A stretch of 64,000 bases of DNA from Deltaproteobacteria bacterium (GTDB lineage Bacteria > Desulfobacterota > Binatia > UTPRO1): the NCBI GenBank assembly GCA_020852955.1, contig JADYZW010000047.1:24436-88435 (forward strand), read 5' to 3'. This document shows, piece by piece, positions 26,054 to 52,736 of this stretch. The notes under the pieces were generated by a model that was not told the DNA's origin, made no database searches, and saw nothing but the letters and a program-made list of their open reading frames with translations. Each line of letters opens with the position of its first letter. The stretch's first letter is position 1. Both the position numbers and the translations under genes were made by a program.

Positions 26054-26137
26054 GCCTGTCGGGTCGACGGCGCGGCACTATGCAGAAGGCGCCGCGCGCC
26101 TGTCAAATCATCCGCCCGCGTGCTAGCCCTGCGGACC

Positions 26138-27019: not shown

Positions 27020-27094
27020 TCCCGGCCGCGTCACGCCCGCTTCGCGAACCCGCGTTGCGCGAACGTGGGTCGATATGGGACAACGGTGGAGTTC

Positions 27095-29167: not shown

Positions 29168-30076
29168 TCAGTACTTGAGCGCCATGACGATGTGGAACGC
29201 CGCGAGCACGAAGAGCGCGAACGAGAGCGGCGCGTGGACGAAGAGCCAACCGTGCAGCACGTCGTGCAGGCGGCGCTGCACCGCGAGCTGGTGTGACTCC
29301 TCGCAGATGGCCGCGAGGCGCTCGAGCTTCGGGGCCCACTCCCCGGGCGCCCGCACGACGAGGGTGCGGATGTCGGGCGGGTTGGTGCGCGTGCGGGCGT
29401 CGCGCAGGAGGTACGGGCGGATCTCGCGTAGGTAAACGTCCCTGAGCAGCGCGGCCTCGGGCACGGGATCAGTCACCGGGGGCTTCCGCGCCACGGCCTT
29501 CCAGTTGCCCGGGCGCGTCTGCAGGGCGGCCTGCTCGGCGGCGAGCCGGGCCTGCTCCTCGGCGGCCTCGGGGACGACGCCGGCCAGGCTCGCGACGAGC
29601 TCGTACGCGTCGGTCGCGAGCCCCTCGCGCACGTGGTCCATCTGACCGACGAGCGTCTCGAGCGGCACGCGCTCGGTCATGATCCCCGGCAGGTACTGCT
29701 GCAGCGCCAGCCCGAAGAGGCCGCTCACCGTAACGACCGCGAACAGCGCCATGAGCGTCGTCGTGAGGGCGCCGCCGAGCCGGAGGCCGGCGTGGAAGAG
29801 GATCAGCGGCACGGCGAGGAGGCCGAGCCAGACGTGCATCTGCATCCAGACGCGCGCCGGCCCGATCCGCCACGTGCGAACCTTCTTCCGCCCCGCGAGG
29901 AGGCCGGCGAGCAGCATCGCGAGCGTCCCGAGGACGCCGTACGCGAGCCCGGGCCAGCTGCCTCCCGACGCACCGTACGGGCTCGCCGCTACGTAGAGGC
30001 GGTAGCTCACCGCGCCGGCGATCGTCGCGACGATCGTGAACGCGAGCCAGCCGCGGTGGTCCCTGTTGAGCCTCAT
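29168..30076 (-). CDS. Five-TM membrane protein with two H-x13-H pairs (putative dihaem b-type cytochrome)
   Basis: Start re-called at ATG 30076, overlapping the upstream stop (ATGA). TM3 reads HVWLGLLAVPLILFH and TM5 reads HAPLSFALFVLAAFH. A helical soluble insert of about 140 aa lies between TM4 and TM5. Confidence 0.7.
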   Translation of the reverse strand: MRLNRDHRGWLAFTIVATIAGAVSYRLYVAASPYGASGGSWPGLAYGVLGTLAMLLAGLLAGRKKVRTWRIGPARVWMQMHVWLGLLAVPLILFHAGLRLGGALTTTLMALFAVVTVSGLFGLALQQYLPGIMTERVPLETLVGQMDHVREGLATDAYELVASLAGVVPEAAEEQARLAAEQAALQTRPGNWKAVARKPPVTDPVPEAALLRDVYLREIRPYLLRDARTRTNPPDIRTLVVRAPGEWAPKLERLAAICEESHQLAVQRRLHDVLHGWLFVHAPLSFALFVLAAFHIVMALKY

Positions 30077-31941
30077 CGCAGATCGGAGGGCGCGAGAAAC
30101 TCGCCAGGAGCGACCCGGATCGCGGCGTCGTGGGGACACGCGTAGACGCAGTTCGGGCCGTCGTAGCCGGCGCAGAGGTCGCAGACCGTGGCGCGCAGCG
30201 ACACGCCCTCGCGCGGGGGCGGCGGCCGCTTCAGCTCGGAGAGCTCGACCATGTTGATGTTCCCGAAGGGACACTGGTTGGCGCAGCGCTCGCAGCCGAT
30301 GCACCAGTCCTCGATCTTGATCTCGAGCGAATCCTCGCGGCGGATCGAGCCGACCGGGCAGCCGACCATGCACTTCGGGTCGGTGCAGGAGCGGCAGGCC
30401 ATGGTGACGAGGTACCGGCCGATGCGCGGCCCGTCGCGGGTAAAGCGCGCCACCCCGTCGTGGGCGTCGGCGCAGGCGCGCACGCACTCGTCGCAGCGCG
30501 TACAGCGTTCGAGATCTATGAGCAGGACGTTCTGCGAGTTGTAGAGGTTGAGCTCGACGGTCTCCTCGAGCATCGCCTGCTCGTTCGCCGAGCGGCTGAA
30601 GGCGGCCGTCTCGAGCGCGCGCCCAGCCCGCGTCGCGGCCGCCAGCGCCGCGGCATTGGCCTCCGCGAGGCGGCCGAGCGCCTCGGCCGGGACGCGGACC
30701 ACCTCGAAGCTGTCGAGTCCGGAGGCGCGCGCGACCCGCACCGCCGCAGGCGCGTCGACCGCGGTGACGTCCTCGCGTCCGATCTCGAAGACGTACTCGA
30801 CGACGCCGATGTGATCGCCCTCGGCGAGGATGGCCTCGCGGATGCGCTCGCCGTTCAGAAGCGTGTGATTCGCGCTGTCGAGATCGACGATCCAGAGCTC
30901 GCCGTCCCGCTCCTCGACGCGGCAATGGCGACGGCCGATCGCACGGCTCTCCTTCGGCACCAGCATGTCGCAGGACTCGCTGCGACCGATCGTGATGGGC
31001 TTGGTGAGCGCCAGCTCCCGGAAGAGAGTCGGGTGCGACGCGCAGCGCAGGACCAGCCTGGTCCGCGGACGCGCCGGCATGAGCGCCTCGAAGCCGAAGG
31101 CTCCGCCGCGACCGAGATAGGTGAAGACGAACTCCCCGCCGGCCTTCGTCTGCGACATCTTGATGGTGCCGGCACGCACGAGATACAGCGCGTCGGCCGG
31201 CGTGTCCTCCGCGTAGACGACGCCGTCCGAAACCTCGTCGGAGTCGGGCGTGAGGAGCGTGCTCACCGCCGCGAGCGCCTCGATCTGCGAGGCGCTCAGC
31301 TCCGCCAGGAGCGCGCTCTGATGCAGGGTGCTGCGGATGGCGTGCGCCTCGTAGGCCTCGTCGATGGCGTCGCCGGCGCCGCGAATCGTGTCGAGCACCG
31401 AGCGCAGCATCTCGAGCGCGACGCACCGGGTCTCGGCGCGCACCGTCGCCTCGCGCGGGTAGAAATTCACGCAGGTATCGAGCCCGAAGATCTCGCCGGG
31501 ACGGATCGCCGCGGGCCCGAGGCGGCGGTCGTGCGCGAGCGTCGCGTAGCGGCTCACCTCGCCGACCTCGGGACGTCCGGGTGTCCGCTCGGCGCGCCGC
31601 GTACGGCGCCGGAAACCGTCCAAGATCCGGGCGAGCGAGCGCGGCGTACGTCCCTCGACGCTCTTCGCCTCGACCCGCTCGGGAAGGAACGCGGTCGCGG
31701 CGCCCTCGACGAGGAGAAACGCGGTCGAGCCGTAGGCGCCGGCCTCGCAGATGACCTCGCCGGGCTCGTACTCGCGCCGTACGACGGCCTTGATGCCGGG
31801 CTCGCCGGCGTCCGGCGCGGCCCCGAGCAGCGTCGGCAGCTTCAGCTTCGCGCGCTTGCTGCTCTTGAAGAAGTCGAGCTCGGCGACCTCTTCGAGTGAG
31901 AGCCACTGGCCGTCGAGGCCATCGGCGTGTCGTCGTGTCAC
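30073..31941 (-). CDS. Cytoplasmic polyferredoxin (NrfC/DmsB-like 4x[4Fe-4S]) fused to two cNMP-binding-like domains and an FHA domain
   Basis: Start re-called at GTG 31941 (gagggtgag RBS), because the upstream part of the track ORF overlaps hldD in another frame. Domains are CNB1 (GEIFGLD...REATVRAETRCVALEM), CNB2 (LYLVRAGTIKM...GGAFGFEAL) and FHA (ITIGRSESCDMLV...RRHCRVEERDGELWIVDLDSANHTLLNG). The Cys clusters are CTRCDECVRAC, CRSCTDPKCMVGCP, CIGCERCANQCP and CDLC...CVYACP. No signal or Tat motif. Confidence 0.8.
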   Translation of the reverse strand: MTRRHADGLDGQWLSLEEVAELDFFKSSKRAKLKLPTLLGAAPDAGEPGIKAVVRREYEPGEVICEAGAYGSTAFLLVEGAATAFLPERVEAKSVEGRTPRSLARILDGFRRRTRRAERTPGRPEVGEVSRYATLAHDRRLGPAAIRPGEIFGLDTCVNFYPREATVRAETRCVALEMLRSVLDTIRGAGDAIDEAYEAHAIRSTLHQSALLAELSASQIEALAAVSTLLTPDSDEVSDGVVYAEDTPADALYLVRAGTIKMSQTKAGGEFVFTYLGRGGAFGFEALMPARPRTRLVLRCASHPTLFRELALTKPITIGRSESCDMLVPKESRAIGRRHCRVEERDGELWIVDLDSANHTLLNGERIREAILAEGDHIGVVEYVFEIGREDVTAVDAPAAVRVARASGLDSFEVVRVPAEALGRLAEANAAALAAATRAGRALETAAFSRSANEQAMLEETVELNLYNSQNVLLIDLERCTRCDECVRACADAHDGVARFTRDGPRIGRYLVTMACRSCTDPKCMVGCPVGSIRREDSLEIKIEDWCIGCERCANQCPFGNINMVELSELKRPPPPREGVSLRATVCDLCAGYDGPNCVYACPHDAAIRVAPGEFLAPSDLR

Positions 31942-33999: not shown

Positions 34000-34095
34000 G
34001 GCCCCGCTTGTAGGTGATATTCCGATGCTGCACCAGTCGGCGCGCCGGTTGCAGCTGGCGCGCGGCGCGTGTTACTCGGCGCACCGGGGGTGGGG

Positions 34096-35421
34096 ATGAT
34101 GCGCGCGACGTTCCTCCTGATCGCCTCGATCGGCTTCGGGATGCTGACGGCGACGCCCGTGGCGGCCGGCCCCGGGTTCCTCGGCGACGGGCGGTGCGGC
34201 AATCCCACGTGCCACGGCGCCGGACTCCCGAACCGCGAGAAGCCCGACCCCAAGTGGCGCCCGTGGAAGTCGGCGCGGACGCAGTGGATCAACACCAACA
34301 TCGACCGCCACTCCCGCGCCTATCGCACCCTCGAGACCGACGAGGGGAGGACGATCGCGCGCTACATGGGTATCGAGGCGACTCAGAGCGACAAGTGCCT
34401 CGCCTGCCATGCCCCCGCGGCGACGGCCGCGCCCGGCGGTCGTTACAAGAAGAGCGACGGCGTCACCTGCGAGCACTGTCACGGCCCCGCCGAGCTCTGG
34501 CTCGAGCCGCACTCGCAGAAGGATTGGCCGCAAACGCGCCGCCAGTACGTCTCGAAAGGCTTCTACGACAACGACGACTATGTGCTGCGCGCCCGTAACT
34601 GCGCGCGCTGTCACGTCGCGATCGACCATGAGATCGTGGCCGGCGGCCACCCGCCCCTCCAGTTCGAGCTGGTCGCGTACGCACAGATCATGAAGCACTG
34701 GGACGACCAGGACGAGCTGCCGGCGGGTGCGTTCAGCGTCGACCCCACGATCTGGGCGCTCGGGCAGGTCACCGGCCTCCGCGACGCGCTTCGCATGCTC
34801 TCGGAACGCGCCGACGGCGCCAACTACCAGTCGTTCGACCAGTTCCCCCACTTCGCCGACCGCAACTGCTACACCTGTCATCACAAACTCGTGGACGACG
34901 CGCTCCGCCAGGCGCGCGGCCACTACCTGATGGTCGACGCCGTGCTCTCGGGCGTCGCCACCGGCAAGCGCGACGAGCTCGCCGGCCTCTGGAACGCCGT
35001 CGCCGCCGCCGTCCCGTCGAGCCCGCAGGCCGCCAAGCAGAAGGCCGACGCCATGATCGGCTGGCTCGGAGCGCTGGAAGGGCGGCTCGATGCGATCGAC
35101 CAGAGTGCGACGCGCCGCATGCTCGCCCGCGTGACCGCGGGCGGCGACCGCCTGAAGCTCGCCGAGCGCTTCTCCTTCAGCCGCTCGAAGAGCTCCAACT
35201 GCGTCGACATCGACAACCCGAGCACCCCCTGGTGGTGGACGACCGGCGGCCCAGAGCAGAGCTATCTCGCGATCCGCGCCCTCTGCCGCCCCGCCTGGGG
35301 CGACCGCTGCGACGTCGTCAAGAGCGACATGCGCACGATGCTCGATGCGATCGACCGCTTCGCCTACAAGCCGGACCAGTTCGCAGCGAGCCTCGGAGCG
35401 GTGGGCGCGAAGCTGAAGTGA
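34096..35421 (+). CDS. Periplasmic multihaem cytochrome c (cytochrome c554-like family)
   Basis: Start re-called at ATG 34096 (MMRATFLLIASIGFGMLTATPVAAG). It has four CxxCH motifs (CLACH, CEHCH, CARCH, CYTCH) plus one CX4CH (CGNPTCH). Confidence 0.75.
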   Translation: MMRATFLLIASIGFGMLTATPVAAGPGFLGDGRCGNPTCHGAGLPNREKPDPKWRPWKSARTQWINTNIDRHSRAYRTLETDEGRTIARYMGIEATQSDKCLACHAPAATAAPGGRYKKSDGVTCEHCHGPAELWLEPHSQKDWPQTRRQYVSKGFYDNDDYVLRARNCARCHVAIDHEIVAGGHPPLQFELVAYAQIMKHWDDQDELPAGAFSVDPTIWALGQVTGLRDALRMLSERADGANYQSFDQFPHFADRNCYTCHHKLVDDALRQARGHYLMVDAVLSGVATGKRDELAGLWNAVAAAVPSSPQAAKQKADAMIGWLGALEGRLDAIDQSATRRMLARVTAGGDRLKLAERFSFSRSKSSNCVDIDNPSTPWWWTTGGPEQSYLAIRALCRPAWGDRCDVVKSDMRTMLDAIDRFAYKPDQFAASLGAVGAKLK

Positions 35422-38155: not shown

Positions 38156-41100
38156 CTAGCGACGTCCCGGGAGGAGACGCTCTTCCTCGGGCGCGGCCGG
38201 CTGTACGACGGGCCCGCCGATCGGGCCCATGCCCGCCTCGGGAAGCTCGGGGCGCAGAAAGGCCCGAGGCTTCGCGGGGGCCGAGTTGGCGACCGTGAAG
38301 ACCTCGCCCCCGTGCATGAAGAGGCGTTCCATTTCGGGGCGGGTGAAGGGCCGCGCGCCGAGCCGGCCGAATACGGCCACCTGATGGCCGCTCTCGTCGA
38401 CCGCTCGGTCGCGCTCGAGGCCGCGGGACAGCGCGACGGCCGGCCCATGCGTGTGGCGGGTGGCGATGAGCCGCGGCGTCGGGATCGGACTGAATCCGGC
38501 GCTTCCCGGGGTCTCTCCCGGAGTGACGAGTTGGAGGATGCGCAGGCCGTTCTTCCCGTCCGCGACATAGGCGAAGACGCTGGCGTCGGTGCCGCCGACC
38601 CGCACCGCACGGGTATCGTCGAGGGTGCCATTGGCGTCGAACATCTGGAAGAGGACGGGCCTGGTCGGGCGTTCGACGTCGACGATCGCGAGGCCCTGCG
38701 ATCCGGCCGGCACGTAGGCGTAGGTGCGCGAGACGGTGAGGTCGCCGGCTTCCGCAATGTCGAGCGACGCCACGAAGCGCGGCTGGTCGAGGCGCGTCAC
38801 GTCGAGCACGCGCAGGCCGCGGGCGTCGGTCACGAACGCGTAGCGGAACTGGACCTGCACCGCGCGGGGCTCGACGACGTCCGGCGCACCCACCTCCGAC
38901 ACGATCCGCGGATGGACCGGGTCGGCGATGCTCACGACGACGAGGCCGCGCTTACACAGCACGTAGGCGTACTCGCCGGCGATCGTGACGTAGCGAGCGT
39001 CGTCGAGCGCGCCCGCCGGATTGAAGCTCGCGACCTTCTCCAGGAAGTTGTTGAGCGGATCGCCATCGGCGAGCATGTCGACGTCCACCACGACGAGCCC
39101 TTCGACCTTGTCGCTCACGTAGGCGTACTTGTAGATCGGGTGCATCGGCTGCTCTTCGTTCGCCGGGTCGCGCTCGCGCCCGTAGTGGATCGGTTGGTTC
39201 GTCGGCAGCGCGACGCCGGTGGCCCACGGCGTCTTCACGTAAGCGCGTTGCCCGAGCGGCGAGACCGGAGCGGTGACGATGCGCTCCGAGAAGCCCTTGT
39301 TGTCGGTGTTGGCGACGTCGAAGACCCGGAACCCGCCCGGCCCGTTGGCGACGTAGAGGTACTCGCCGCGGAGTTGGACCGACTGCACGTCGACGGCCCG
39401 GCTCGCGAGGTCGACGCCCGGATGCTCGTACGCCTCCTGGAGTTCCAGGTCGTGATCGAGGTGGGTCTGGAAATTGTCGGGGTACACCATGCGGTGCAGG
39501 TTCGAGCCGATCACCGCCTGCGGCTCGTCCCATTCCGTCACGGCGACGGCCTCGAGCCCGTGCTCGCCCTCGCCGACCCACGCGAAGCGGCCGACGAAGT
39601 TCACGAAGTTCGTCCCGAGCGTCAGCACCTGCGCCATCCAGGCGTTGTTGTCGCCGTTCGCCGACACGTGGCAGTCGTCGCACTGCCGCGTCTCCCTGGC
39701 GCGCACCGTGTGCGCGAAGTGGGCGTTGAACGCCTGCGAGCTGTAACCTTCGGCCGAGACGGGCGGCTGCTGGTAGTACTGCCGCTCGCGGTTCGCGTTG
39801 GTGGTGCTGATGATGACGGCGCTCGACGAGCGCACCGGCGCGACCGTGTGGCCCTTCACCGTGCTGTGCCGGCCGAGCATGAAGATGTCGTGGCGCAGCA
39901 CTTGCGGATTGTACGAGGTCCAGTTGCGGGTCTCGCCGCCGTCGTAGTGCTTCTTCGCGATCTTCCAGTTCGCCTGCTGCGGCAGGTGGCAGCCGAAGCA
40001 GCTCGTCACCCACGACGTGTGGCACGCGATGCACGACATCTTGTCGGCGCCGTGCGCGAGCGCATCGGTCTTTTCGGGCACGTCGCCCCAGGTCTTGCCG
40101 TCGGCGCGCATCGTCTTCGCGAGGCGCGCCTTCTCGCTGTAGTGCTTGGAGAGCGGGTCGATCACGTCGACGACCTGCGGCACCTCCCACTCCTTGCCCT
40201 CCTCGAGCATCGAGCGCTGAATCAGCTCGCCGCCGATCCATTCGAAGCGCCGCTCGCCCCAGGGCGTGAGGCCGGTGAGGAGGTTCGTACCCCCGTCCGG
40301 CGCCGCCGGGCCGCTCGTCGTGACGGTCGCCCAGGTGTTCACGGTCCCGTGACAATCGACGCAGCCGATCTCGATCGCGTCGGGATACTCGCCGTAGATC
40401 TTGCCGTTGGAGTGGACGTCCTGCTGGAAGTGGCAGTCCACGCAGTGCATGCCCTTCTCGAGGTGGATGTCCTTCAGGTGCACGGCCTTGTCGAACTTCT
40501 TCGGGTCGTTCGGGTCGACGATCGTGCCGTTCTTGTCGAGGAGATTGCCCTTGCGGTCCTGGCTGTAGACGGCGCGGAAGATCCAGCCGTGGCCGTGATA
40601 GTCGGCGAAGGTCGTCTCCTTGGTCTTGGCATTGAGGTCGCTGACGTTCTTCAGAAACTCGCGGTCGGTCCAGAGTCCGCGGATGGCGGCCTCTTCCGGG
40701 TTGTGGTCGAGGCTCCTGTGCATGGGCTCGTAGTCCGCGACGTTGAGCGGCCATGGCTTGTCCACCGTCCGATGCCGCTGCTCGGCCGGCCAGAGCAGCT
40801 GGCCGTCGGTCTCGTAGTCCCACATCTGGTAGCCGAGGAACGTGTTCACGAACGAGTTCGGCTGGTGCATGTGGCAGACCATGCACTGGCTCGTCGGGAT
40901 CGCGCGCGTGAGGCGGTGCTCGATCGGGTGACCGGACTCGTCCTTCGGGATCGTCGGGTCCTTGCCGAAGTAGCGGCCGTCGTGGCCGTATTTCGCGTAC
41001 GACGCGGAGTGCGCCGGATCCTTGTCGTTGGCGTAGACGACGTGGCAGCCGGTGCAGCCGCTCGAGCGATAGTCGCCGGGGTGGTCGTTGGTGCCGAGAA

Positions 41101-42082
41101 ACGAGAGGTGCGGGTCGTTCAGGCGCGTCTTCTGGATGTTCAGCACGCCGGCGCTGATGCGGAGGTCGGTGCCGAGCCCGCGCGTGCCGAACTTCATGTC
41201 CGGCTTGCCGGGGAGATCGGGGAGCGGGCCGAGCCCAGGGTTCCCGACCTCGGACACGACCGAACGGTCGATCTTGCCCCCGCGCTCGAAGGCGCGGAGC
41301 GGATCGGGAGGCTGCGCGACGTTCCAGGCCGGAAGCGGCAGGAGGAACGGCAGCACGCCCTTGCGCCGCTCCTCGGGCGTCGGCGGCGGCACGGTATTGA
41401 GCTTCCGCGGCTTCCCGTCCCTCGTGTACGACTCGCCGACGATGTAGCGCTTGGCCGGCAGGATCCCGTTGTTGTACGCGGCGCCGCCCCAGAGCAGCGC
41501 CGACGTCGTCATGAGGCTGCGCTCGACCTGGCGCACCTCGTTCAGGTGGCACCCGCCGCAGGTCTCCGGAGCGACGCGGAGATCCCCGGGATTGATGAAC
41601 TGCAGGTATTCCGGCGACTCCTCGTTCAGCGCGGTGTAGCTGCGCTCGGGATTCGCGGAGCTGATCCGGTCATGGTTCTTCGGATCGCGCCAGACGTCGG
41701 GGCGGCGCGGGGCCACGTGCGCGTCCCGCTGCGCCGCCGCGTACTCGTCGGTGCCGGGCTTGGCGCCGCGCGCGCTCGCCTGCACGTTGCCTCCGTGGCA
41801 ATCGACGCAGCCGAGGTTCACCTGCCCCGAGACGTGCATCGGCTCGATGCCCTGATGGCAGGAGAGGCAGCCGGCGCTCTTCGCGTCGGCCTCGCCCTGC
41901 GTCTGGCGCAGGAGCTTCGGCGCGCTGTCCGGGATGCCGCCGACGCCCGGCTCGTGTGCCGCCGCCCCCGCCCCGGTCGCCGTCGTCTCGTCGGCCCGTA
42001 CGGGGCCGGTCACGCCGGTGGCCGCCATGACCGCCAGCGCCGACGCCACGCCGACGCCGACCCATCGCGTTCGATCGCTCAT
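38156..42082 (-). CDS. Decahaem c-type cytochrome fused to a C-terminal LVIVD-repeat beta-propeller
   Basis: Start re-called at ATG 42082 (gggagggtgga RBS; signal peptide MSDRTRWVGVGVASALAVMAATGVTGPVRA). The ten CxxCH motifs are CLSCH, CVDCH, CGGCH, CTGCH, CMVCH, CVDCH, CVDCH, CIACH, CFGCH, CDDCH. Six or more LVIVD-like units lie at about 38525-39380 (YLYVANGPGGFRVFDV, YAYVSDKVEGLVVVDV, YAYVLCKRGLVVVSI, YAFVTDARGLRVLDV, YAYVPAGSQGLAIVDV, FAYVADGKNGLRILQL). Confidence 0.85.
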   Translation of the reverse strand: MSDRTRWVGVGVASALAVMAATGVTGPVRADETTATGAGAAAHEPGVGGIPDSAPKLLRQTQGEADAKSAGCLSCHQGIEPMHVSGQVNLGCVDCHGGNVQASARGAKPGTDEYAAAQRDAHVAPRRPDVWRDPKNHDRISSANPERSYTALNEESPEYLQFINPGDLRVAPETCGGCHLNEVRQVERSLMTTSALLWGGAAYNNGILPAKRYIVGESYTRDGKPRKLNTVPPPTPEERRKGVLPFLLPLPAWNVAQPPDPLRAFERGGKIDRSVVSEVGNPGLGPLPDLPGKPDMKFGTRGLGTDLRISAGVLNIQKTRLNDPHLSFLGTNDHPGDYRSSGCTGCHVVYANDKDPAHSASYAKYGHDGRYFGKDPTIPKDESGHPIEHRLTRAIPTSQCMVCHMHQPNSFVNTFLGYQMWDYETDGQLLWPAEQRHRTVDKPWPLNVADYEPMHRSLDHNPEEAAIRGLWTDREFLKNVSDLNAKTKETTFADYHGHGWIFRAVYSQDRKGNLLDKNGTIVDPNDPKKFDKAVHLKDIHLEKGMHCVDCHFQQDVHSNGKIYGEYPDAIEIGCVDCHGTVNTWATVTTSGPAAPDGGTNLLTGLTPWGERRFEWIGGELIQRSMLEEGKEWEVPQVVDVIDPLSKHYSEKARLAKTMRADGKTWGDVPEKTDALAHGADKMSCIACHTSWVTSCFGCHLPQQANWKIAKKHYDGGETRNWTSYNPQVLRHDIFMLGRHSTVKGHTVAPVRSSSAVIISTTNANRERQYYQQPPVSAEGYSSQAFNAHFAHTVRARETRQCDDCHVSANGDNNAWMAQVLTLGTNFVNFVGRFAWVGEGEHGLEAVAVTEWDEPQAVIGSNLHRMVYPDNFQTHLDHDLELQEAYEHPGVDLASRAVDVQSVQLRGEYLYVANGPGGFRVFDVANTDNKGFSERIVTAPVSPLGQRAYVKTPWATGVALPTNQPIHYGRERDPANEEQPMHPIYKYAYVSDKVEGLVVVDVDMLADGDPLNNFLEKVASFNPAGALDDARYVTIAGEYAYVLCKRGLVVVSIADPVHPRIVSEVGAPDVVEPRAVQVQFRYAFVTDARGLRVLDVTRLDQPRFVASLDIAEAGDLTVSRTYAYVPAGSQGLAIVDVERPTRPVLFQMFDANGTLDDTRAVRVGGTDASVFAYVADGKNGLRILQLVTPGETPGSAGFSPIPTPRLIATRHTHGPAVALSRGLERDRAVDESGHQVAVFGRLGARPFTRPEMERLFMHGGEVFTVANSAPAKPRAFLRPELPEAGMGPIGGPVVQPAAPEEERLLPGRR

Positions 42083-42123
42083 CGTCCACCCTCCCATGCC
42101 GCGCCTGCCCCGCATGGGCTTCA

Positions 42124-43842
42124 TCAGAAGACCAGCACCACTTCGGTGCCGACCTGATAGAGCGTGTTGCTCTCCGTAATGTCCGTGAGCCCCCCGAACG
42201 GCTGGAGGATCGCCCCGAAGCCCTTCACGATGACGTTGTTGTTGAGGAAGGGCCGGTACTCGACGCCAAGGCTCAGGTCGATGCCGATGTCCTGGCGAAC
42301 GTCGGGCTGCTTCAGCAGGATCTGGAGCGGCTCGGTGTCGACGAACCGGAGGTAGGTGGCGTTGCCGATCAGGCTCACCTTCTGGGTGAGATCGGCCGTC
42401 GCGCCGACGTTCACCATCAGGATGCCGGGATTCACGAAGTTCGGCTGGCCCTGGGTCTTCGAGCTGCGCAGATCGGGCACGACGCTGTTGCGCTGCATGA
42501 GCGCGACGCCGCCGCGATCGGTGACGCGGATCGATTGGCGCTGCCAGTAGCCGAAGTTGCCGCCCATGATCTGCGGGTTGTCGAGGATCGTGTCGAAGCC
42601 CCGCGCGGTGTCGTCGCGCGGGTCGCTGTCGCCGGACGACCAGAAGACCGACGCCTGGTAGCGCATCCAGTCGCGGTCCATCGAGAGCTCGAGGAACGCC
42701 TGCTGCGCCTCGATGTCCACGTCGCGTCCCGCGATCGGGTTCGACGTGTCGTGACCGAGGGCCTGGTAGAAGGCGTGGCTGACGTTCACCCAGCCGAGGT
42801 GCCCCTCGCCGGTCCACCCGAGGTAGAAGACGTCGAGGTTGTGGGGCCGCGCGATGCCGACGGGATCGGGCCGGACCAGGAAGCCCTGGTTGTCGAAGAC
42901 GAACCCCGCGTCCTTCCCGTCGTCGTTCAGGTAGTGGACGCTGAACTGGGTCGTGTAGCCGAGCTTCAGGAAGTCCTGGATGTAGAGGTTGCCGATCGCG
43001 ATCTGCTGGTCGCGCAGACCGAACGTGTTGAGGTCCGAGTTCGTGTCCTTCTCCGCCGGATAGAAATACGCGAGGTTGTACTGGTAGCGGTTCGAATTGG
43101 CGTTGCCGAAGAACCGGATGCCCTGGTTCACGTCCGAGAAGACGAGGCTCCGGAAGTCGCTGTTGAACGGCTGCCGGCCGATCTTCGTCGAGAGGAAGTC
43201 GTAGTTCACCGAGGTGTCGAGGAGGTGGATCTCGACGAAGGCCTCCTGCAGGGCCGCGTGGGTCGTGAGCCGATCGGTCGCGTCGCGGACGTCGGGATCG
43301 ACGAGACCGTTCTCACCGGTCGCGAGCAGGTTCACGTCGAAGGCGCCCGCGAGGACGATCTGCCATTCGAACGGCTTGAACGACGTCTGGCCCTTCTGCA
43401 GCTCGAATCGCGTCACGAACTTCTGATCGAAAAGGATCGCGTTGCGGTTCCCGAAGAAATCGAAGCTGCCCGGGTCCTCGGTGGACACGCCGCTCGGCGA
43501 CGGCGCGCCTCGGCCCTCGACGCTCGTCTTCGAAATGCCGGTCAGCTTCATGAAGACGTCGTCGCCGAGGATCGGTATGTCGCCCTTGAGCACGTTCTGG
43601 TTGTAGGGATCCCACCAGTGGCCCTTGGTGTTGAGTTGGTAGGGCGGCAGCTCCATCCGCCAGCGATCCTCGAAGAGCTCCGTCGCGGGCGTATCGCTGC
43701 CGACCGCCGGGCTCTCGACCGTGACGCTCGGTCCGCCCCCGGGAGCGTCCTCGGCCCGCGCTGACGGCGCGGCGAGCGCCCACGCGAGCACGGCGGCGCA
43801 GGCGACGAACGGAACGACGTCGTGACGCGCGCGGCGGGCCAT
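42124..43842 (-). CDS. Outer-membrane beta-barrel protein (porin-like partner of the cytochrome)
   Basis: Start re-called at ATG 43842 (MARRARHDVVPFVACAAVLAWALAAPSARA signal peptide). It shows an alternating amphipathic strand pattern, abundant Tyr/Asn/Gly/Asp, and a C-terminal ...YQVGTEVVLVF ending in Phe, as in the OMP beta-signal. Confidence 0.75.
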   Translation of the reverse strand: MARRARHDVVPFVACAAVLAWALAAPSARAEDAPGGGPSVTVESPAVGSDTPATELFEDRWRMELPPYQLNTKGHWWDPYNQNVLKGDIPILGDDVFMKLTGISKTSVEGRGAPSPSGVSTEDPGSFDFFGNRNAILFDQKFVTRFELQKGQTSFKPFEWQIVLAGAFDVNLLATGENGLVDPDVRDATDRLTTHAALQEAFVEIHLLDTSVNYDFLSTKIGRQPFNSDFRSLVFSDVNQGIRFFGNANSNRYQYNLAYFYPAEKDTNSDLNTFGLRDQQIAIGNLYIQDFLKLGYTTQFSVHYLNDDGKDAGFVFDNQGFLVRPDPVGIARPHNLDVFYLGWTGEGHLGWVNVSHAFYQALGHDTSNPIAGRDVDIEAQQAFLELSMDRDWMRYQASVFWSSGDSDPRDDTARGFDTILDNPQIMGGNFGYWQRQSIRVTDRGGVALMQRNSVVPDLRSSKTQGQPNFVNPGILMVNVGATADLTQKVSLIGNATYLRFVDTEPLQILLKQPDVRQDIGIDLSLGVEYRPFLNNNVIVKGFGAILQPFGGLTDITESNTLYQVGTEVVLVF

Positions 43843-44543
43843 CACCAACTCCCCCACAGCCACAGCGCCGCCGCCACCAGCGCCCCGATCGCGAGCACGA
43901 GCCACCGCCGGCCGCCGGGCTTCGCGCCCGTCCCGGCTCCCTCTTCCGCCGCCGGAGCGCCGCGCTCGTCGAGGAAGATCAGCTCGTCGCCTCCGAGCTG
44001 CACTCGCATTTTGTGCGTCAAGGGAACCTCCTCCTTCACCTGTGTGCCGTCCACCAGCACGACCTTCCCGGTGACCGGCGTGAGGTACCAGTGGCCGTCG
44101 CGCACCGTCAGCTGCGCGTGCTCGCGCGACGCCGTCTGCGAATAGAGCCGGAGGTCGCACGAGGGCAGCCGGCCCATCAGATAGTGCGCGCGCTCGAGCG
44201 TGACGATGTCGGAGCGTCCCGGCGGCTGCACGCGCTGGAGGCGCGCCGGCGGCGGCGCCTGCGGCTGGAGGTCGGCGAGCAGGATCGTGTGCTCCGCGAA
44301 GTCGCCGCCCGCGGCCGGAGCCGTCGGCACGATCGTCCCGGGCGTCGCGGACGTCTTCGGCATCGGAGGCGGCGTCGCCGCGAGGCGCGTCGACTCGTCG
44401 AGCGGCGGCGCCGGGCTCGCGGGCGCGGCGGGTGTCGGCGGGGACGGAGGCGACGAGACTTGCGGCGCCCCCGGCAGCTTCGGCGGCGCGCCGCCGATCC
44501 GCGTGTGCTCGTCGAATCCCGTGTCGTCCCCGTCCTTCGCCAT
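43842..44543 (-). CDS. Tail-anchored FHA-domain protein
   Basis: A Pro/Ala-rich disordered N-terminus is followed by an FHA core (YLMGRLPSCDLRLYSQTASREHAQLTVRDGHWYLTPVTGKVVLVDG) and a single C-terminal TM helix (WLVLAIGALVAAALWLWGSW). Its stop overlaps the barrel ATG by 1 nt (TGATG). Confidence 0.8.
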   Translation of the reverse strand: MAKDGDDTGFDEHTRIGGAPPKLPGAPQVSSPPSPPTPAAPASPAPPLDESTRLAATPPPMPKTSATPGTIVPTAPAAGGDFAEHTILLADLQPQAPPPARLQRVQPPGRSDIVTLERAHYLMGRLPSCDLRLYSQTASREHAQLTVRDGHWYLTPVTGKVVLVDGTQVKEEVPLTHKMRVQLGGDELIFLDERGAPAAEEGAGTGAKPGGRRWLVLAIGALVAAALWLWGSW

Positions 44544-44587
44544 CGCTCGTGCTCGCGCCTACCTCGCCGCGCCTCGGCGACGCGCCG

Positions 44588-46432
44588 TCACTGATTGGGC
44601 TGCCGGTTGAACTTGAGGTACGGCAGCCGCACGCCGCGCACCTTCACCCGATCCGCGCGGATCGCCGACGGCGGCTCGAAGCCCGGTGGGGCGTTCGCGC
44701 CCGCGTTCGTCACGATGTCGTCCTGCTCGACACCGTCGCCGCTGACGCCGAAGCCCCCGATCAGCGTGCCGTCCCGGTAGAGCGGGGCACTGCCGGGAAA
44801 GAAGACGATGCCGTTCTGCCGTCCGTTCTCCGGCTCCTGGCCGTTGGTGCACGGATTCGCCGAGTCGAAGAGGAACACGCGCCGGAACGGGCCGGGCTGC
44901 GTGCCGTCGATGCCGGACGGAAAGAGCGGCTGCGCGCCGAAGCTCAGCGTGCGGTTGGTGATCGCCGTCCCGGGCTCGTAGGCCGTGCCGATCGTGACGT
45001 CGAGGCCCGGGCTGTCCCGCGTGTCGACGGGATCGATCGCCGGGTTGCTGAACCAGATCACGTTGCGCGACTTGGCGACGGCGACGTCGATCGAGAAGAC
45101 GGTCGCATCGTCCATACGATAGAGGCCGAGCAGCACGCCGTTGGCGTCCGAGACGGCGAGTATCATCGCGGTGCGCTCCTCGAGCGGCAGCCGGATCGCG
45201 GCGCGGGTCCTGCGCGCCTCCGCCACGCCCGTGTCGATGATCGCGCGCACCTCGGCGGCGCCGATCGGCGGCACGCCCGGCGAGGAATCGCGCGGACCGA
45301 CGAGCCAGCCGCCCGGCACGACGTCCGCGGCGGGCGCGCCCGCCGGGTCCATCACGAACGAGAGGGCGCGCGCGACGGGGCCCGAGCCGGCCTCGACCGG
45401 GGGATCGTTCGCGACCTCGGGCACCTCGATGCCGTCGATGAAGATCACCGGGTCGATGCGCTGAACGTTCGGCAGAATGCTGAAGGTGCAGGGACTCACC
45501 GGGTCCGCGCAACACGCCGGGCGTGCGATCGCGGTGTTGGCGCAGACGTTCACGAGCCCCTTGTCGACGACGGTCGGCACCACCGCCTTCACGTCGCCGG
45601 CGAAGGCGCGTGCGGCGAACTCGCCGACGTCGAAGTCCGGGTCGCCGTCCTGCCGGCGCAGCACGACGTCGCCCTCGGGCGCGGCCTCGGAATCGGGTCC
45701 GGGATCCTGGCCGCGCAGGAAGACGCCGATGCCGCCCGCCAAGCGTCCGTTCTTGAAGATCGGCACGCCGCCCGGAAGGGTCGCGATGCCGGTCGTGCAT
45801 CCGGCGCGCGACCCGCCGCTCTCGCACGCGAGCGGCGCGGCGCCGGCGAGATCGACGAGCGTCGCCGCGAGGCTGCGCGCGCGCGGGATCACCTGGTCCG
45901 CCTCGAAGAGCCCGTCGCCCGCTGCCGCGTCGAAGCTGCAGCCGCGGTTCGTGTTCTCGATGCCGAAGAGGGCGGCCGCCCCCGTGTTGTCGATGCGCGG
46001 CGGGAAGTGGATGTCGCTGATGAAGCGGATCGAGCGCGAGGTGAGCGGCGTCTGGTCGGCGCTGAAGAAAGCGGCGGTGCGCGCCAGCTGGGTCGCGAAG
46101 CTCGCGACCGCGCAATCGGTGCCCGGCGTCGGGTTCGGCGCCTCGCAGGCCGTCGCGTCGATCGCGAAGTTGGCGCCGACGCCGAGGATCACGCCGCGGC
46201 GGTCGGTCACGGCGACGACTAGATCGCGGTCGACCGCCCGCGCCGCGTGCTCCATGAGCGAACGCACCTCGTCGCGCTCAAGCGTCGGCGCCGTCGCCGC
46301 CGGCGGGGGACCCGTGCCGGGACCCTCGCCTTGTCCGGCGCCGCCGCCGCACGCGGCCAGCATCGTCACGAGCGCCGCTGCCAGCCACTCCGACCGCCTC
46401 CCGTACTGCGCCCCCATCACGGCTCTCCGCAT
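44588..46432 (-). CDS. Lipoprotein with two GlcG/HbpS-like (DUF336, haem-degrading/haem-binding family) domains
   Basis: Start re-called at ATG 46432 (…WLAAALVTMLAAC lipobox). Domain 1 reads LVVAVTDRRGVILGV...LPGGVPIFKNGRLAGGIGV. Domain 2 reads MILAVSDANGVLLGLYRMDDATVFSIDVAVAKSRN...PLYRDGTLIGGFGVSGDGVEQDDIV. Confidence 0.7.
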   Translation of the reverse strand: MRRAVMGAQYGRRSEWLAAALVTMLAACGGGAGQGEGPGTGPPPAATAPTLERDEVRSLMEHAARAVDRDLVVAVTDRRGVILGVGANFAIDATACEAPNPTPGTDCAVASFATQLARTAAFFSADQTPLTSRSIRFISDIHFPPRIDNTGAAALFGIENTNRGCSFDAAAGDGLFEADQVIPRARSLAATLVDLAGAAPLACESGGSRAGCTTGIATLPGGVPIFKNGRLAGGIGVFLRGQDPGPDSEAAPEGDVVLRRQDGDPDFDVGEFAARAFAGDVKAVVPTVVDKGLVNVCANTAIARPACCADPVSPCTFSILPNVQRIDPVIFIDGIEVPEVANDPPVEAGSGPVARALSFVMDPAGAPAADVVPGGWLVGPRDSSPGVPPIGAAEVRAIIDTGVAEARRTRAAIRLPLEERTAMILAVSDANGVLLGLYRMDDATVFSIDVAVAKSRNVIWFSNPAIDPVDTRDSPGLDVTIGTAYEPGTAITNRTLSFGAQPLFPSGIDGTQPGPFRRVFLFDSANPCTNGQEPENGRQNGIVFFPGSAPLYRDGTLIGGFGVSGDGVEQDDIVTNAGANAPPGFEPPSAIRADRVKVRGVRLPYLKFNRQPNQ

Positions 46433-46461
46433 GGCTCCGGACCCTCCAAGGATGCGCGCGC

Positions 46462-48882
46462 TCAGGCGGGTGGAATCGTCAACTTCACGGGACCTTTGAT
46501 CTTCGCGACGCACGCCAACCGATACTTCACGGGATTCCAGTCGAGCTGCCGCACCTTTTCGATGGTGGGCCGCTCCATGCCGCCCGGATCGGGCGGCACG
46601 AAGTGCTCGGCGCCCTCGATGATCTCGACCGTGCAGAGGCCGCACTGGCCGATCTTGCACTCCCAATCGAGCGGCTCTTCGTGATGATCGCGCGGCGCGC
46701 CGTCCTTGCCGACCTTGCAATCGGGAAAGCGCGTGACGAGCTCGTGGAAATACGCGTGCAGCAGGTCCTGGTCCGGCGCGACCGGGATCGTGAGCTTGTA
46801 CTTCTCGTAGTCGAGCGCGGCGACGAGCCCGCCCGCGGTGGCGGCGGCGAGCGCGGCCGGAGCGGGTGCGGCCGGAGCGGCCGCGGCAGGCGGCGCGGCG
46901 GCGTGCGGCGCGGCGACGACCACGTCGCTCGGCGCGAGCTTCGATACCGGCGCGAACCGTTCGAAGCGGAACCGCTTGCTCGCGACCCGGAACTCGTCGC
47001 CGTTCGCGAGCCGGGTCGGCGCCGTCAGCTTCACGTACGTGCCGTTCTTGCTCCCGAGATCGAAGATGCCGAGCGCGCCGCCCTCGATCCGCAACTGCGC
47101 GTGGCGCCGGGACAAGCTCAGATCCGCCTTGTCGAGGGACACCGCCTCGACCCGGCCGACGATCATCCCCTTGCCTGGGATCGGATAGGTTTCCCGCTGC
47201 ACGCCCTCGGCGTCGAAGTGGGTGACGGCCCAGCCGTTCCCCTGCTCCACGACCATGAGGATCTGCGCGCCGATCCAGACGAGGTCGTTCGCGACGAGCG
47301 GCCGCCCCTCCTGCCCTTTGGCGCGGAGCCACACGCCGGCCCCGCCGCTCTCGTCCTCGAGCGCGTAGCCGTCGTCCTGGCGGGTCAGGAGCGCGTGCGT
47401 GTCGGCCATGTAGACGTCGTCGGCGCAGGCGATGTCGGGCGTCTTCCTGCCGATCGTGACCTGATCCTTCGTGAGCGGGAACGCCTCTTCCGGCGAGTCG
47501 TCGGGATGGAGGCTCACCAGCTGCGCCGCGCTCGCCGGACGCTTGGCGGCCTCGGCGTGCGACGGCGCCGGCGGCACGACGACCGGCGGCGGCGGAGCGC
47601 TCGGCGCCACGGACGGCGCGCTCGAGGGCGCGGCGGCCGCCGGCTTCGGCGGCGCGGGCGCCGGCGTCGGCGTCGGCGCCACCTCGGACTTCGGCACCTC
47701 CATGCCGGCGCGCAGCGCGATCGCCTCGACCGCCTTCACCGCATCGACCATGGCGGCCTTGATGTTGCGCTTCTCGACGACCTGCTCGTACGAGCCCGCG
47801 TCGTCGAAATCCTTGCAGCGCAGATATTTCGGCCCGCGCGCGTCGCCCACCAGGAACACGCCCGGCAACGACACCTCGCCGTCGTGGTTCACCAGCATCT
47901 GCGGTCGGTTGTTGAGGAGCGGGATCTTGATGCCGCAGCCTTGCAGCAGCTTCACCGGCAGGTCCTCGCCGATGCAGGCCACCACCTGATCCTTGGCGAA
48001 CTCGAGGTGGACGGTCTCACAGGGCCTGCCCGCCGAGATCTTGCGGTCGATCCGCACCGACAGGTACTCGAGCTTGTCGTCGGCGGTGACCACCGCGACG
48101 GGCTCCGAGAACGCGAGATAGCGGACGTTGCCGTTCCCGACGTAGGCGGAGAAGAACACCTCGGAGAGCGCCCGCGACACCTTCGGCATGCCGCCGCCGC
48201 GATACGACCAGTAGATCGCGCTCTGATCCTCGCCCGCGATCTTCGCGCCCGAGATCGCGATCACCGCCTCCGCCGCCGACGTGCCGCCGCCGATCACGAG
48301 CGCGGGCCTCCCGACGTAGTCCTTCGCGTCGTCGAGGCGGAACGCGATGCCGTCGGTGTTGCCGGGGATGTCGAACCGGCGCGGCACGCCCGCGCCGATC
48401 GCGAGGAGGACATTGCGCGCTTGGTAGCGCTCTTCCTCGCCGGTGCGATGGTTCCAGGTCCGGACGCTCCACACGCCCTCGGGCAGCCGGTCGAGCCCCG
48501 TGAACTCGTGGCCGATCTTCGCGGTCAGGCCGTACTCCTTGTACTTGGCCTTCCAGACCTTCACGAGATCGTCCTTGTCGATGTCGTCGAACGCGAGGGC
48601 CGCGAGCATCGGCCCGCCGGCCGGGAACTGGAGCTTGTCGCCGCCGCCGTAGCTCGGAAGGATCTGCTTCTCCTTCGGGTAGTCGCGGATGCGCTTCATC
48701 AGGTCGTCGTAGTCGACGACCAGGCAGGAGAGTCCGAGCTCCTTGCAGCGCACCGCCGCCGCGGTGCCGGCGGGACCGCCGCCCGCGACGAAGACGTCGA
48801 CGACGTCCGGCACGGCAGCCGGCTGGTCGACCTTCAGCGTCCCTCGGCGGGTATAGTCCGCCTCGTCTATCTTGTCGGACAT
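46462..48882 (-). CDS. FAD/NAD(P)-binding oxidoreductase fused to two FHA domains and a plant-type [2Fe-2S] ferredoxin domain
   Basis: Start re-called at ATG 48882 (MSDKIDEADY). FAD fold VDVFVAGGGPAGTAAA, second nucleotide fold PALVIGGGTSAAEA, then GVFLVGDA. After a Pro/Ala linker come FHA1 (VTIGRKTPDIACADDVYMADTHALLTRQDDGYALEDES) and FHA2 (MIVGRVEAVSLDKADLSLSRRHAQLRIEGGALGIFDLGSKNGTYV). The C-terminal CKIGQCGLC...LAC matches the C-x4-C-x2-C...C ferredoxin pattern. No signal peptide. Confidence 0.8.
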   Translation of the reverse strand: MSDKIDEADYTRRGTLKVDQPAAVPDVVDVFVAGGGPAGTAAAVRCKELGLSCLVVDYDDLMKRIRDYPKEKQILPSYGGGDKLQFPAGGPMLAALAFDDIDKDDLVKVWKAKYKEYGLTAKIGHEFTGLDRLPEGVWSVRTWNHRTGEEERYQARNVLLAIGAGVPRRFDIPGNTDGIAFRLDDAKDYVGRPALVIGGGTSAAEAVIAISGAKIAGEDQSAIYWSYRGGGMPKVSRALSEVFFSAYVGNGNVRYLAFSEPVAVVTADDKLEYLSVRIDRKISAGRPCETVHLEFAKDQVVACIGEDLPVKLLQGCGIKIPLLNNRPQMLVNHDGEVSLPGVFLVGDARGPKYLRCKDFDDAGSYEQVVEKRNIKAAMVDAVKAVEAIALRAGMEVPKSEVAPTPTPAPAPPKPAAAAPSSAPSVAPSAPPPPVVVPPAPSHAEAAKRPASAAQLVSLHPDDSPEEAFPLTKDQVTIGRKTPDIACADDVYMADTHALLTRQDDGYALEDESGGAGVWLRAKGQEGRPLVANDLVWIGAQILMVVEQGNGWAVTHFDAEGVQRETYPIPGKGMIVGRVEAVSLDKADLSLSRRHAQLRIEGGALGIFDLGSKNGTYVKLTAPTRLANGDEFRVASKRFRFERFAPVSKLAPSDVVVAAPHAAAPPAAAAPAAPAPAALAAATAGGLVAALDYEKYKLTIPVAPDQDLLHAYFHELVTRFPDCKVGKDGAPRDHHEEPLDWECKIGQCGLCTVEIIEGAEHFVPPDPGGMERPTIEKVRQLDWNPVKYRLACVAKIKGPVKLTIPPA

Positions 48883-48962
48883 CGACCCCGATCCCTTCTC
48901 GGGAACACCACGCCGCCCCACCGTAGAAGCCGCGCCTTCCTACTGATTCGGCGTCGAAGTTG

Positions 48963-52734: not shown

Positions 52735-52736
52735 GG

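Follow-up and report, generated by a model that had tools for sequence, protein, structure and literature searches.

A flavoprotein-FHA-ferredoxin fusion linked to a conserved multihaem-cytochrome operon: a candidate phospho-regulated NAD(P)H entry module

Introduction

The gene analyzed here lies on a 64,000-nucleotide stretch of DNA (the window; positions 24,436 to 88,435 of contig JADYZW010000047.1, assembly GCA_020852955.1) from a Deltaproteobacteria bacterium assigned by GTDB to Binatia (UTPRO1). Its product, hereafter the target, is a single chain in which a flavoprotein of the thioredoxin reductase (TrxR) fold is joined through two FHA domains to a [2Fe-2S] ferredoxin. Every domain comes from a known family, and the gene sits in a conserved, uncharacterised system of multihaem cytochromes. 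The closest described relatives of the N-terminal part are the TrxR-type (YumC-type) ferredoxin-NADP+ reductases (FNRs) of C. tepidum (3ab1), B. subtilis (YumC, 3lzw), B. cereus (FNR1/2), T. thermophilus (2zbw) and R. palustris (5ygq), which have the same two-Rossmann fold without a CxxC, the flavin adenine dinucleotide (FAD) and NAD(P)H motifs, and a ferredoxin partner. The target differs from these in that its ferredoxin is in cis and of the [2Fe-2S] type, that two FHA domains stand between the redox domains, and that the flavoprotein has an invariant Cys in the motif ACIGED. The same logic of NAD(P)H to flavin to tethered [2Fe-2S] is found in phthalate dioxygenase reductase, the BenC-type reductases and the reductase domain of P450 RhF; these single-chain reductases, however, use a plant-type FNR module, have no FHA domain and serve oxygenases rather than a cytochrome conduit.

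FHA phospho-switches are described for GarA/OdhI, Rv1747 and the type VI secretion proteins Fha/TagH with PpkA/PppA. The target likewise has a canonical FHA domain and, in the conserved operon, a co-encoded Ser/Thr kinase and PP2C phosphatase, and its tandem FHA domains and disordered linkers recall those of the Rv1747 ABC transporter. In contrast to these switches, its FHA tandem sits in a redox enzyme linked to multihaem cytochromes. FHA/kinase/PP2C switches are well known, but none is known from a redox enzyme or a cytochrome conduit.

Extracellular and transmembrane electron transfer is known mainly from Shewanella and Geobacter, where electrons exit via the quinone pool and regulation acts mostly on transcription. 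The Hmc, Tmc and Nhc complexes of sulfate reducers and the MtrCAB and Pcc systems share with the operon a plan of periplasmic multihaem cytochrome, cytochrome b (predicted in the operon), cytoplasmic Fe-S protein and porin-cytochrome pair. The operon differs from them in that its Fe-S subunit bears cyclic nucleoside monophosphate (cNMP)-binding domains and that genes for the flavoprotein-ferredoxin and for FHA, kinase and phosphatase proteins are included. Its proteins matched no Pfam or NCBIfam models of Hmc/Tmc/Nhc or of porin-cytochrome complexes in the scans that were run.

The remaining comparison is with Ferrigenium straubiae, for which a 'novel membrane-associated nonahaem cytochrome c' cluster has been described with its function given as unknown (bioRxiv 10.64898/2026.01.22.701106, section 6.3.2). 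That cluster consists of a multihaem cytochrome with a single transmembrane (TM) segment, a 5-TM protein without recognised motif and a cytosolic [4Fe-4S] protein, and according to the same preprint the association of FHA with multihaem cytochromes was previously unreported (bioRxiv 10.64898/2026.01.22.701106). The FHA domain there is on the cytochrome and a flavoprotein-FHA-ferredoxin gene is not mentioned. The cluster was likened to the window by description only: a profile search with the 5-TM family returned, among the matches listed, none named for the Ferrigenium group, and the sequence link failed. Full-text literature searches returned no description of the fusion, nor of FHA or PP2C with multihaem cytochromes, except this preprint.

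Architecture of the fusion gene

The open reading frame (ORF) of the target starts with ATG and is unbroken over 806 residues; an alternative GTG start at 48921, 39 nt upstream of the ATG, would add 13 residues. Third-position GC content was 0.89-0.96 in every 300-nt interval of the gene, both low-complexity linkers included. Because the frame is continuous and the third-position GC uniform, the target was taken as one gene without sign of a frameshift. The possibility raised in the initial annotation of this DNA, that two or three genes had been fused by undetected frameshifts or sequencing errors, was rejected on these grounds and on the finding of 113 full-length homologues. A promoter and terminator scan of 42000-49300 returned no promoter and one terminator at chance level.

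The motifs quoted in that annotation were all found (GGGPAG at residue 34, IGGGTSAAEA at 197, GVFLVGDA at 341, CKIGQCGLC at 742 and LAC at 789), and its reading of the protein as a flavoprotein, two FHA domains and a ferredoxin was correct by Pfam (Pyr_redox_2/3, FHA twice, Fer2). From the N-terminus the order is TrxR-fold flavoprotein, Pro/Ala linker, FHA tandem, second linker and [2Fe-2S] ferredoxin. TM topology was assigned by hydropathy only, for this and all other proteins; the target had no TM segment and is therefore predicted to be cytoplasmic. An AlphaFold2 model built with 32 homologues as input had a mean predicted local distance difference test (pLDDT) score of 82, with disorder only at residues 400-450 and 658-683, and FHA1 and FHA2 formed one confidently modelled block with a disordered linker on either side. 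The fusion architecture is visible in databases, but under generic names only: an identical protein (P0001), from a metagenome-assembled genome (MAG) at NCBI, is called 'NAD(P)-binding domain-containing protein [Deltaproteobacteria bacterium]', and homologues at JGI carry the label 'thioredoxin reductase/FHA/ferredoxin'.

Redox domains

The flavoprotein domain was matched by Pfam Pyr_redox_2 (residues 29-349, E 7e-18) and Pyr_redox_3 (E 1e-16). Foldseek searches with the AlphaFold2 model returned TrxR-type FNRs as the top matches (3ab1 at E 5e-21, then 6gas, 3lzw, 2zbw and 5ygq, all with probability 1.00), over a range of E 5e-21 to 1e-15 and with an identity of just 15-21%. As modelled, the N-terminal domain is closest in structure to this class of ferredoxin-NADP+ reductases. 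The dinucleotide-binding residues were highly conserved, with G34, G36 and G39 in 112 of 113 homologues, G198 and G200 in all 113, and Y227/R228 near-invariant. The initial annotation regarded the pairing of flavin reductase and [2Fe-2S] domain as the standard converter from NAD(P)H to one-electron carriers; the fold here is that of a TrxR-type FNR and not of the plant-type FNR module with which [2Fe-2S] domains are usually combined in fused reductases.

YpdA/Bdr proteins and genuine thioredoxin reductases were close behind the FNRs in the Foldseek list. Together with YpdA (TIGR04018) as the best NCBIfam match and the 'thioredoxin reductase' names in databases, these structures would fit a thiol-disulfide reductase of the thioredoxin-reductase or YpdA/Bdr type. 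The YpdA match, however, reached 62.7 bits against a cut-off of 339.9 and covered profile positions 1-171 only, and that to thioredoxin reductase (TIGR01292) reached 28 bits against 343. No CxxC was present within residues 1-400; the sole CxxC of the protein, C747/C750, belongs to the ferredoxin motif, and the absence of a redox CxxC from the flavoprotein had been correctly noted before. The position equivalent to Cys14 of YpdA, the conserved Cys of its GGGPCG motif, is Ala38 in the target and Ala or Gly in 110/113 homologues. Because the CxxC is lacking, Ala occupies the YpdA Cys position and the equivalog scores are far below threshold, the target is neither kind of disulfide reductase, and both identities were rejected. 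The fused [2Fe-2S] domain also points to one-electron chemistry, and a thiol-disulfide role is given almost no weight.

A further Cys, C303 in ACIGED (residues 299-304; 47971-47988, minus strand), was invariant in 113/113 homologues. It is the only invariant Cys of the flavoprotein domain, and flavoprotein relatives of about 370 residues that stand alone have it as well.

The C-terminal domain was a marginal Pfam Fer2 match (residues 735-795, E 1.3e-4, 22.3 bits against a cut-off of 21). This call gained strength from a profile built for the domain from 22 homologues, which matched solved [2Fe-2S] ferredoxins in the PDB (9i2a at E 9e-13; FeSII, 5ffi, at 4e-7), dozens of plant-type ferredoxins at about 1e-6, and the fused ferredoxin domains of 6kbh, 6laa and 5ogx. 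The AlphaFold2 model of this region was mixed alpha/beta with pLDDT 82-97; the Foldseek list of the whole chain was filled by matches to the N-terminal domain. The conservation expected of the C-terminal Cys pattern held for C742, C747 and C791, each present in 111 of the 113 homologues, and not for the third position, which is Asp in about a third of them. This third ligand, C750 (46633-46635, minus strand), is dimorphic by clade, with Cys in 71 and Asp in 40 of the 113. The [2Fe-2S] centre of E. coli SdhB has Asp at the same position and the dimorphism is thus compatible with a cluster, whose potential it may tune. An insertion containing C722 was found in the ferredoxin domain of the window's clade.

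FHA domains and linkers

The expectation that the FHA segments would be detected by hidden Markov models was borne out: Pfam FHA matched over two stretches (58.2 bits against 20.7, E 1e-15), the best of them residues 574-633 in FHA2, and the FHA-like family Yop-YscD_cpl matched over two stretches (43.2 bits against 33.2) and covered residues 467-547 in FHA1. The closest solved relative of FHA2 by sequence was GarA (E 2.5e-8). Each of G576, R577, S591, R592, H594 and N613 in FHA2 was kept in 109-113 of the 113 homologues, and when G614 and T615 are included each of the eight residues was kept in at least 103. FHA1 is more variable. At its Ser-equivalent position 61 homologues had Ala and 46 had Ser, Ala being the residue of the window's clade and Ser that of the Bacteroidota/KSB1 clade, and at its Asn-equivalent position the counts were Ser 72, Thr 26, Asn 8 and Ala 5.

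The end of linker 1, just ahead of FHA1 (residues 428-450; 47533-47600, minus strand), had the form (V)VPPxP[S/T][E/Q]PxDA in the window's clade and GPPxE[S] in the Bacteroidota/KSB1 clade, and the PP dipeptide was kept in 100/113 homologues. The motif could be a docking or phosphorylation site. A Thr followed by two hydrophobic residues was present in linker 1 of only 24/113 homologues, and for that reason no candidate Thr phospho-site was named there.

Distribution and linkage to a multihaem-cytochrome operon

A word-indexed search returned at least 800 matches to the target, and the top 120 were nearly all 750-830 residues long with an identical domain order. An exhaustive search of representatives at 50% identity gave 116 clusters at E <= 1e-30, about 30-40 of them full length. 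At least 113 full-length homologues, spread over about a dozen phyla, share the architecture. When one genome was scanned for each GTDB species, 76 loci came up, all in MAGs, from Binatia, Myxococcota, Bacteroidota (including Rhodothermales and Cytophagia), Ignavibacteria/Chlorobi, KSB1, Zixibacteria, Calditrichia, Acidobacteriota, Gemmatimonadota, Eiseniibacteriota, Planctomycetota, Deferribacteres and others. Stand-alone flavoproteins and stand-alone FHA-FHA-ferredoxins turned up among the 50%-identity representatives. Use of such split forms as Rosetta-stone evidence was rejected, as most of the short FHA-FHA-ferredoxin matches look like truncated gene calls.

Neighbouring genes in all fetched loci were found by simple ORF calling and labelled by phmmer against seed proteins from the window and from loci L004 and L006. 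On a Bacteroidota contig, genes on one strand encode, in order, an LVIVD multihaem cytochrome, a C554-like cytochrome, a cNMP-binding 4Fe-4S protein, a 281-residue protein without Pfam match, a c7-like cytochrome, an FHA-FHA protein, the target, PP2C and a Ser/Thr kinase. A second, unrelated contig had the same gene set in permuted order. Counted only over loci with enough flanking DNA, the decahaem c7-like cytochrome was near the target in 43/57 loci, the cNMP-polyferredoxin in 35/48, the C554-like cytochrome in 27/40, the kinase in 18/44 and PP2C in 14/56. The FHA-only (FHA-FHA) gene is directly upstream of the target in the conserved operon. On the downstream side, the distance between the target stop and the start of PP2C was -4 to +5 nt in 6 of the 8 loci in which a downstream PP2C was measured, and the Ser/Thr kinase gene often follows. 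Metagenome loci anchored on the 5-TM gene and with at least 5.5 kb downstream had the decahaem cytochrome in 13/13, the FHA-FHA gene in 11/13 and the target in 11/13; the pattern used to find these loci had been derived from 5-TM genes with a known link to the target, which biases the sample.

The target is a near-constant member of a conserved multihaem-cytochrome operon made up of genes for a C554-like multihaem cytochrome, the cNMP-binding HycB-like polyferredoxin, a 5-TM protein with four invariant His, a membrane-anchored decahaem cytochrome, the FHA-FHA protein, the target, PP2C and a Ser/Thr kinase. None of the other conserved operon members scanned has a dinucleotide-binding domain. 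A module of porin and LVIVD-decahaem cytochrome often adjoins the operon. Exceptions to the synteny are mostly found in the window's own clade. In KSB1 and other loci the target is again followed by the HbpS-like protein, the porin and the LVIVD cytochrome.

Proposed electron path and direction of flow

The polyferredoxin, 5-TM, decahaem and PP2C genes of the window are clear homologues of operon members in Bacteroidota and L006. The polyferredoxin matched those of L004 and L006 at E 1e-52 to 1e-58, and its C-terminus (residues 473-615) resembles the multi-[4Fe-4S] electron wires of the HycB3/HycB4/HycB and NrfC/PsrB types. In other phyla it has no FHA domain, and a separate FHA-FHA protein is encoded. 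The four His of the 5-TM protein were invariant in 15-17 homologues of 22-28% identity, with the H281/H295 pair on the last helix. By the positive-inside rule the first His of each pair (H81, H281) would be close to the cytoplasm and the second (H95, H295) close to the periplasm, the arrangement expected of a transmembrane wire with two haems. Pfam matches of this protein were all below threshold (Ferric_reduct, E 0.012; DUF4405, E 0.025, and 1.5e-5 for the homologue P0196; Ni_hydr_CYTB, prokaryotic cytochrome b561), and one homologue is named ferric-reductase-like by NCBI. From these features it is predicted to be a di-haem transmembrane cytochrome b. The membrane-anchored decahaem cytochrome has a short basic N-terminal tail and a single TM segment at residues 27-47.

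We put at about an even chance that the target serves, in the cytoplasm, as the module through which electrons from NAD(P)H enter a transmembrane conduit under phospho-regulation. NAD(P)H would place two electrons on the FAD of the TrxR-fold flavoprotein, and the [2Fe-2S] domain, tethered by a flexible linker of about 30 residues, would take them from FAD singly. The [2Fe-2S] domain would then reduce the HycB-like polyferredoxin of the conserved membrane complex, from which electrons would pass outward to the di-haem b 5-TM protein, the membrane-anchored decahaem cytochrome and the periplasmic C554-like cytochrome, with the porin and LVIVD-decahaem module as the last station. The FHA tandem, chiefly FHA2, would dock the reductase on a phosphothreonine (pThr) written by the co-encoded receptor-type Ser/Thr kinase and erased by the co-encoded PP2C; the pThr site may be on a cytoplasm-facing partner or on the FHA-FHA adaptor. 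Phosphorylation would in this way act as a switch on electron input, as probably would cyclic nucleotide through the polyferredoxin. The cytoplasm-facing part that carries an FHA fusion differs by lineage, namely the reductase, the polyferredoxin (in the window) and a tail-anchored protein, with a cytochrome tail reported in Ferrigenium. A pThr-dependent assembly on the cytoplasmic face fits this pattern.

The same complex could instead carry electrons inward, from the outside or the periplasm, with the flavoprotein reducing NAD(P)+ as a ferredoxin:NAD(P)+ reductase. The closest structural relatives of the domain are ferredoxin-NADP+ reductases, which physiologically pass electrons from ferredoxin to NADP+, and the similar-looking trio of nonahaem cytochrome, 5-TM protein and 4Fe-4S protein has been described in an Fe(II) oxidiser; inward flow would also be charge-separating, as in Hmc/Tmc. 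It would conserve energy, however, only with a low-potential donor, and the loci scanned showed neither a hydrogenase nor a formate dehydrogenase nor any other low-potential donor enzyme of the periplasm. With high-potential donors such as Fe(II), the reduction of NAD(P)+ through an electrogenic inward step would be uphill twice, and sequence homology to the Ferrigenium cluster could not be confirmed. Inward flow was accordingly considered improbable.

Several observations weigh against the main reading of the target as an NAD(P)H entry module. Outward transfer from cytoplasmic NAD(P)H is thermodynamically easy, yet dissipates membrane potential. FHA1 of the target has Ala493 at the Ser position and Ala515 at the Asn position, and its set of pThr contacts is incomplete; the initial annotation had looked for the pThr-binding residues in both copies, and the full set was found in FHA2 only. 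The annotation's proposal of an electron-input module recruited or switched by phosphorylated partners, with the polyferredoxin and an FHA protein as candidates, is partly supported: it gains from the gene linkage to polyferredoxin, FHA, PP2C and kinase genes and is weakened by the two contacts missing from FHA1. Foldseek searches of the 5-TM model against the PDB returned nothing below E 0.4, so that the di-haem b call rests on the His pattern and the weak Pfam similarities. In the window, the operon homologues are split over two sites, with the target about 15 kb from the polyferredoxin, 5-TM and decahaem genes (27824-31941); in this clade the target adjoins haem-biosynthesis genes and the outer-membrane module instead, and no Ser/Thr kinase gene was found in the 64-kb window. 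Around the target in L001 and L005 there were only PP2C or unrelated neighbours. To these are added the bias of the 5-TM-anchored sample and the origin of the homologues, which among the matches listed were all MAG- or metagenome-derived.

Gene content of the window

Features of the window are given in Table 1.

Table 1. Target gene, its domains and linked genes in the 64,000-nucleotide window. Positions are those of the window.
Feature	Position	Strand	Basis or remark
Target gene, flavoprotein/FHA1/FHA2/[2Fe-2S] ferredoxin fusion, 806 residues	46462..48882	-	Pfam, ORF, motifs
TrxR-fold two-dinucleotide-binding flavoprotein domain, residues 27-392; GGGPAGT (FAD), GGGTSAAEA (NAD(P)H), ACIGED (C303)	47707..48804	-	Pfam, Foldseek, conservation
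Disordered Pro/Ala-rich linker 1, residues 393-450	47533..47706	-	pLDDT <50 for residues 400-450, composition
FHA1, divergent, residues 451-548; keeps G478, R479, H496	47239..47532	-	Pfam, alignment
FHA2, canonical, residues 549-650; G576, R577, S591, R592, H594, N613, G614, T615	46933..47238	-	Pfam, GarA/OdhI alignment
Disordered Ala/Pro-rich linker 2, residues 651-683, tether of ferredoxin domain	46834..46932	-	pLDDT <50 for residues 658-683, composition
[2Fe-2S] ferredoxin domain, residues 684-806; C742-x4-C747-x2-C750 ... C791	46465..46833	-	Pfam Fer2, profile vs PDB
Cytoplasmic polyferredoxin: two cNMP-binding domains, FHA, HycB/NrfC-like multi-[4Fe-4S] module	30073..31941	-	Pfam, PDB matches
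5-TM membrane protein, 302 residues, H81-x13-H95 and H281-x13-H295; predicted di-haem b wire	29168..30076	-	His conservation
Membrane-anchored decahaem c7/c3-like cytochrome	27824..29155	-	Pfam, 10 CxxCH, synteny
PP2C Ser/Thr phosphatase, homologue of the PP2C directly 3' of the target in Bacteroidota and KSB1	27086..27799	+	Pfam, similarity
Class III nucleotidyl cyclase-FHA fusion	26120..27019	+	Pfam
C554-like multihaem cytochrome, homologue of the first gene in the conserved operon	34090..35421	+	Pfam, similarity
Decahaem c-type cytochrome with LVIVD beta-propeller repeats, 1322 residues; putative outer-surface	38156..42124	-	Pfam, 10 CxxCH
Putative outer-membrane beta-barrel (porin-like), 572 residues, signal-like N-terminus, no above-threshold Pfam match	42124..43842	-	Synteny
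Tail-anchored FHA protein, 233 residues, C-terminal TM segment at residues 213-233	43842..44543	-	Pfam, hydropathy; stop overlaps next gene's start
HbpS/GlcG-like lipoprotein, first gene downstream of target	44588..46432	-	Pfam, synteny
Haem/sirohaem biosynthesis operon: CysG-N-like, CcsA-like cytochrome-assembly protein, HemA, HemC, CobA-HemD fusion	48963-54238	-	Directly upstream of target

The cyclase-FHA and PP2C genes (26120-27799) are divergent from the decahaem, 5-TM and polyferredoxin genes. The cyclase-FHA gene, with the cNMP-binding domains encoded nearby, suggests a cyclic-nucleotide layer of control. Adjoining the cyclase-FHA gene is a gene for an MscS-type mechanosensitive channel fused to a cNMP-binding domain (24578-25981, minus strand).

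These regulatory genes bear on a different role for the target, that of a redox-sensing signalling adaptor in which the state of the FAD and the [2Fe-2S] cluster would report the NAD(P)H level of the cytoplasm or how reduced the conduit is, alter FHA engagement with phosphoproteins and feed a kinase/PP2C/cyclase network. Signalling parts are unusually frequent in the neighbourhood: four proteins have five FHA domains between them, a PP2C and the FHA-cyclase are encoded, cNMP-binding domains are present on the polyferredoxin and the MscS channel, and the FHA tandem is the central and best-conserved non-redox part of the target. The FAD, NAD(P)H and cluster motifs are nevertheless strictly conserved, as in a working reductase, and the operon is otherwise without an NAD(P)H-linked enzyme through which electrons could enter or leave the polyferredoxin. 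A sensory role is compatible with a reductase role; as the account of the target it was judged unlikely.

The genes flanking the target were considered in relation to haem. In the window the target follows the haem-biosynthesis operon with its CcsA-like gene and precedes the HbpS-like protein of a 'haem-degrading' family, and IruO (5twb) was among the Foldseek matches, all of which would suit a maturation or iron/haem-handling reductase that serves c-type cytochrome biogenesis, in the manner of IruO or other TrxR-type FNRs that act on Fe(III)-siderophores or in haem turnover. Besides the window, however, adjacency to haem genes was found in two distinct loci (L075, which is the same place as L003, and L076), within its own clade only, whereas the linkage to cytochrome, polyferredoxin, FHA and PP2C genes holds across phyla. 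The HbpS-like protein, moreover, is a predicted lipoprotein outside the cytoplasm. Since the haem-gene adjacency is clade-restricted and the thiol features are absent, the haem/iron and disulfide readings are both poorly supported, and the former was considered very unlikely.

Downstream of the target, within a putative outer-membrane module (38156-46432, minus strand), the tail-anchored FHA, porin-like and LVIVD cytochrome genes overlap start to stop. The homologue of the porin-like protein in L003 had a faint Alginate_exp match, and the porin-like gene recurs beside the LVIVD cytochrome in other loci. Directly 3' of the LVIVD cytochrome is a gene for a secreted or lipoprotein-like protein of 784 residues (35561-37915, minus strand), with 62 Cys (7.9%) and no Pfam match, which is conserved in the related genome of L075. 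Between the cytochrome modules lies a gene of the deoxyhypusine-synthase family (33019-33999, minus strand; Pfam DS, E 7e-39) that adjoins one for an NAD-dependent epimerase. A second redox fusion (22532-24001, plus strand) combines an N-terminal Rieske [2Fe-2S] domain with Pyr_redox_2 and Reductase_C, and is followed by a gene for a CMD-family protein.

Significance

Read across the family, the operon may represent a hitherto unrecognised respiratory or redox module, widespread in uncultured Bacteroidota, Ignavibacteria, KSB1, Zixibacteria, Acidobacteriota, Gemmatimonadota, Myxococcota, Binatia and others, in which electrons pass from cytoplasmic NAD(P)H through flavoprotein, [2Fe-2S] domain, polyferredoxin and di-haem b to the decahaem c of the periplasm and outer surface, gated by Ser/Thr phosphorylation, as read by FHA domains, and by cyclic nucleotides. 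This generalisation is tentative, and we hold it with less than even confidence. If it is true, many lineages of uncultured bacteria in soil, sediment and groundwater would have a different entry route into transmembrane electron transfer, in which a soluble NAD(P)H reductase-ferredoxin acts on a wire of Fe-S protein, haem b and multihaem c. With that entry step under a eukaryote-like kinase/phosphatase/FHA circuit, extracellular electron transfer would be gated post-translationally, and the target would be a testable candidate for fast gating of electron export or import. A function would be provided for a family whose present names go no further than 'FAD-dependent oxidoreductase' or 'FHA domain-containing protein', and, if homologous, the 5-TM protein reported without recognisable motif in the 2026 preprint would gain a redox role. 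The operon would then also serve as a marker gene set for spotting this capacity in metagenomes.

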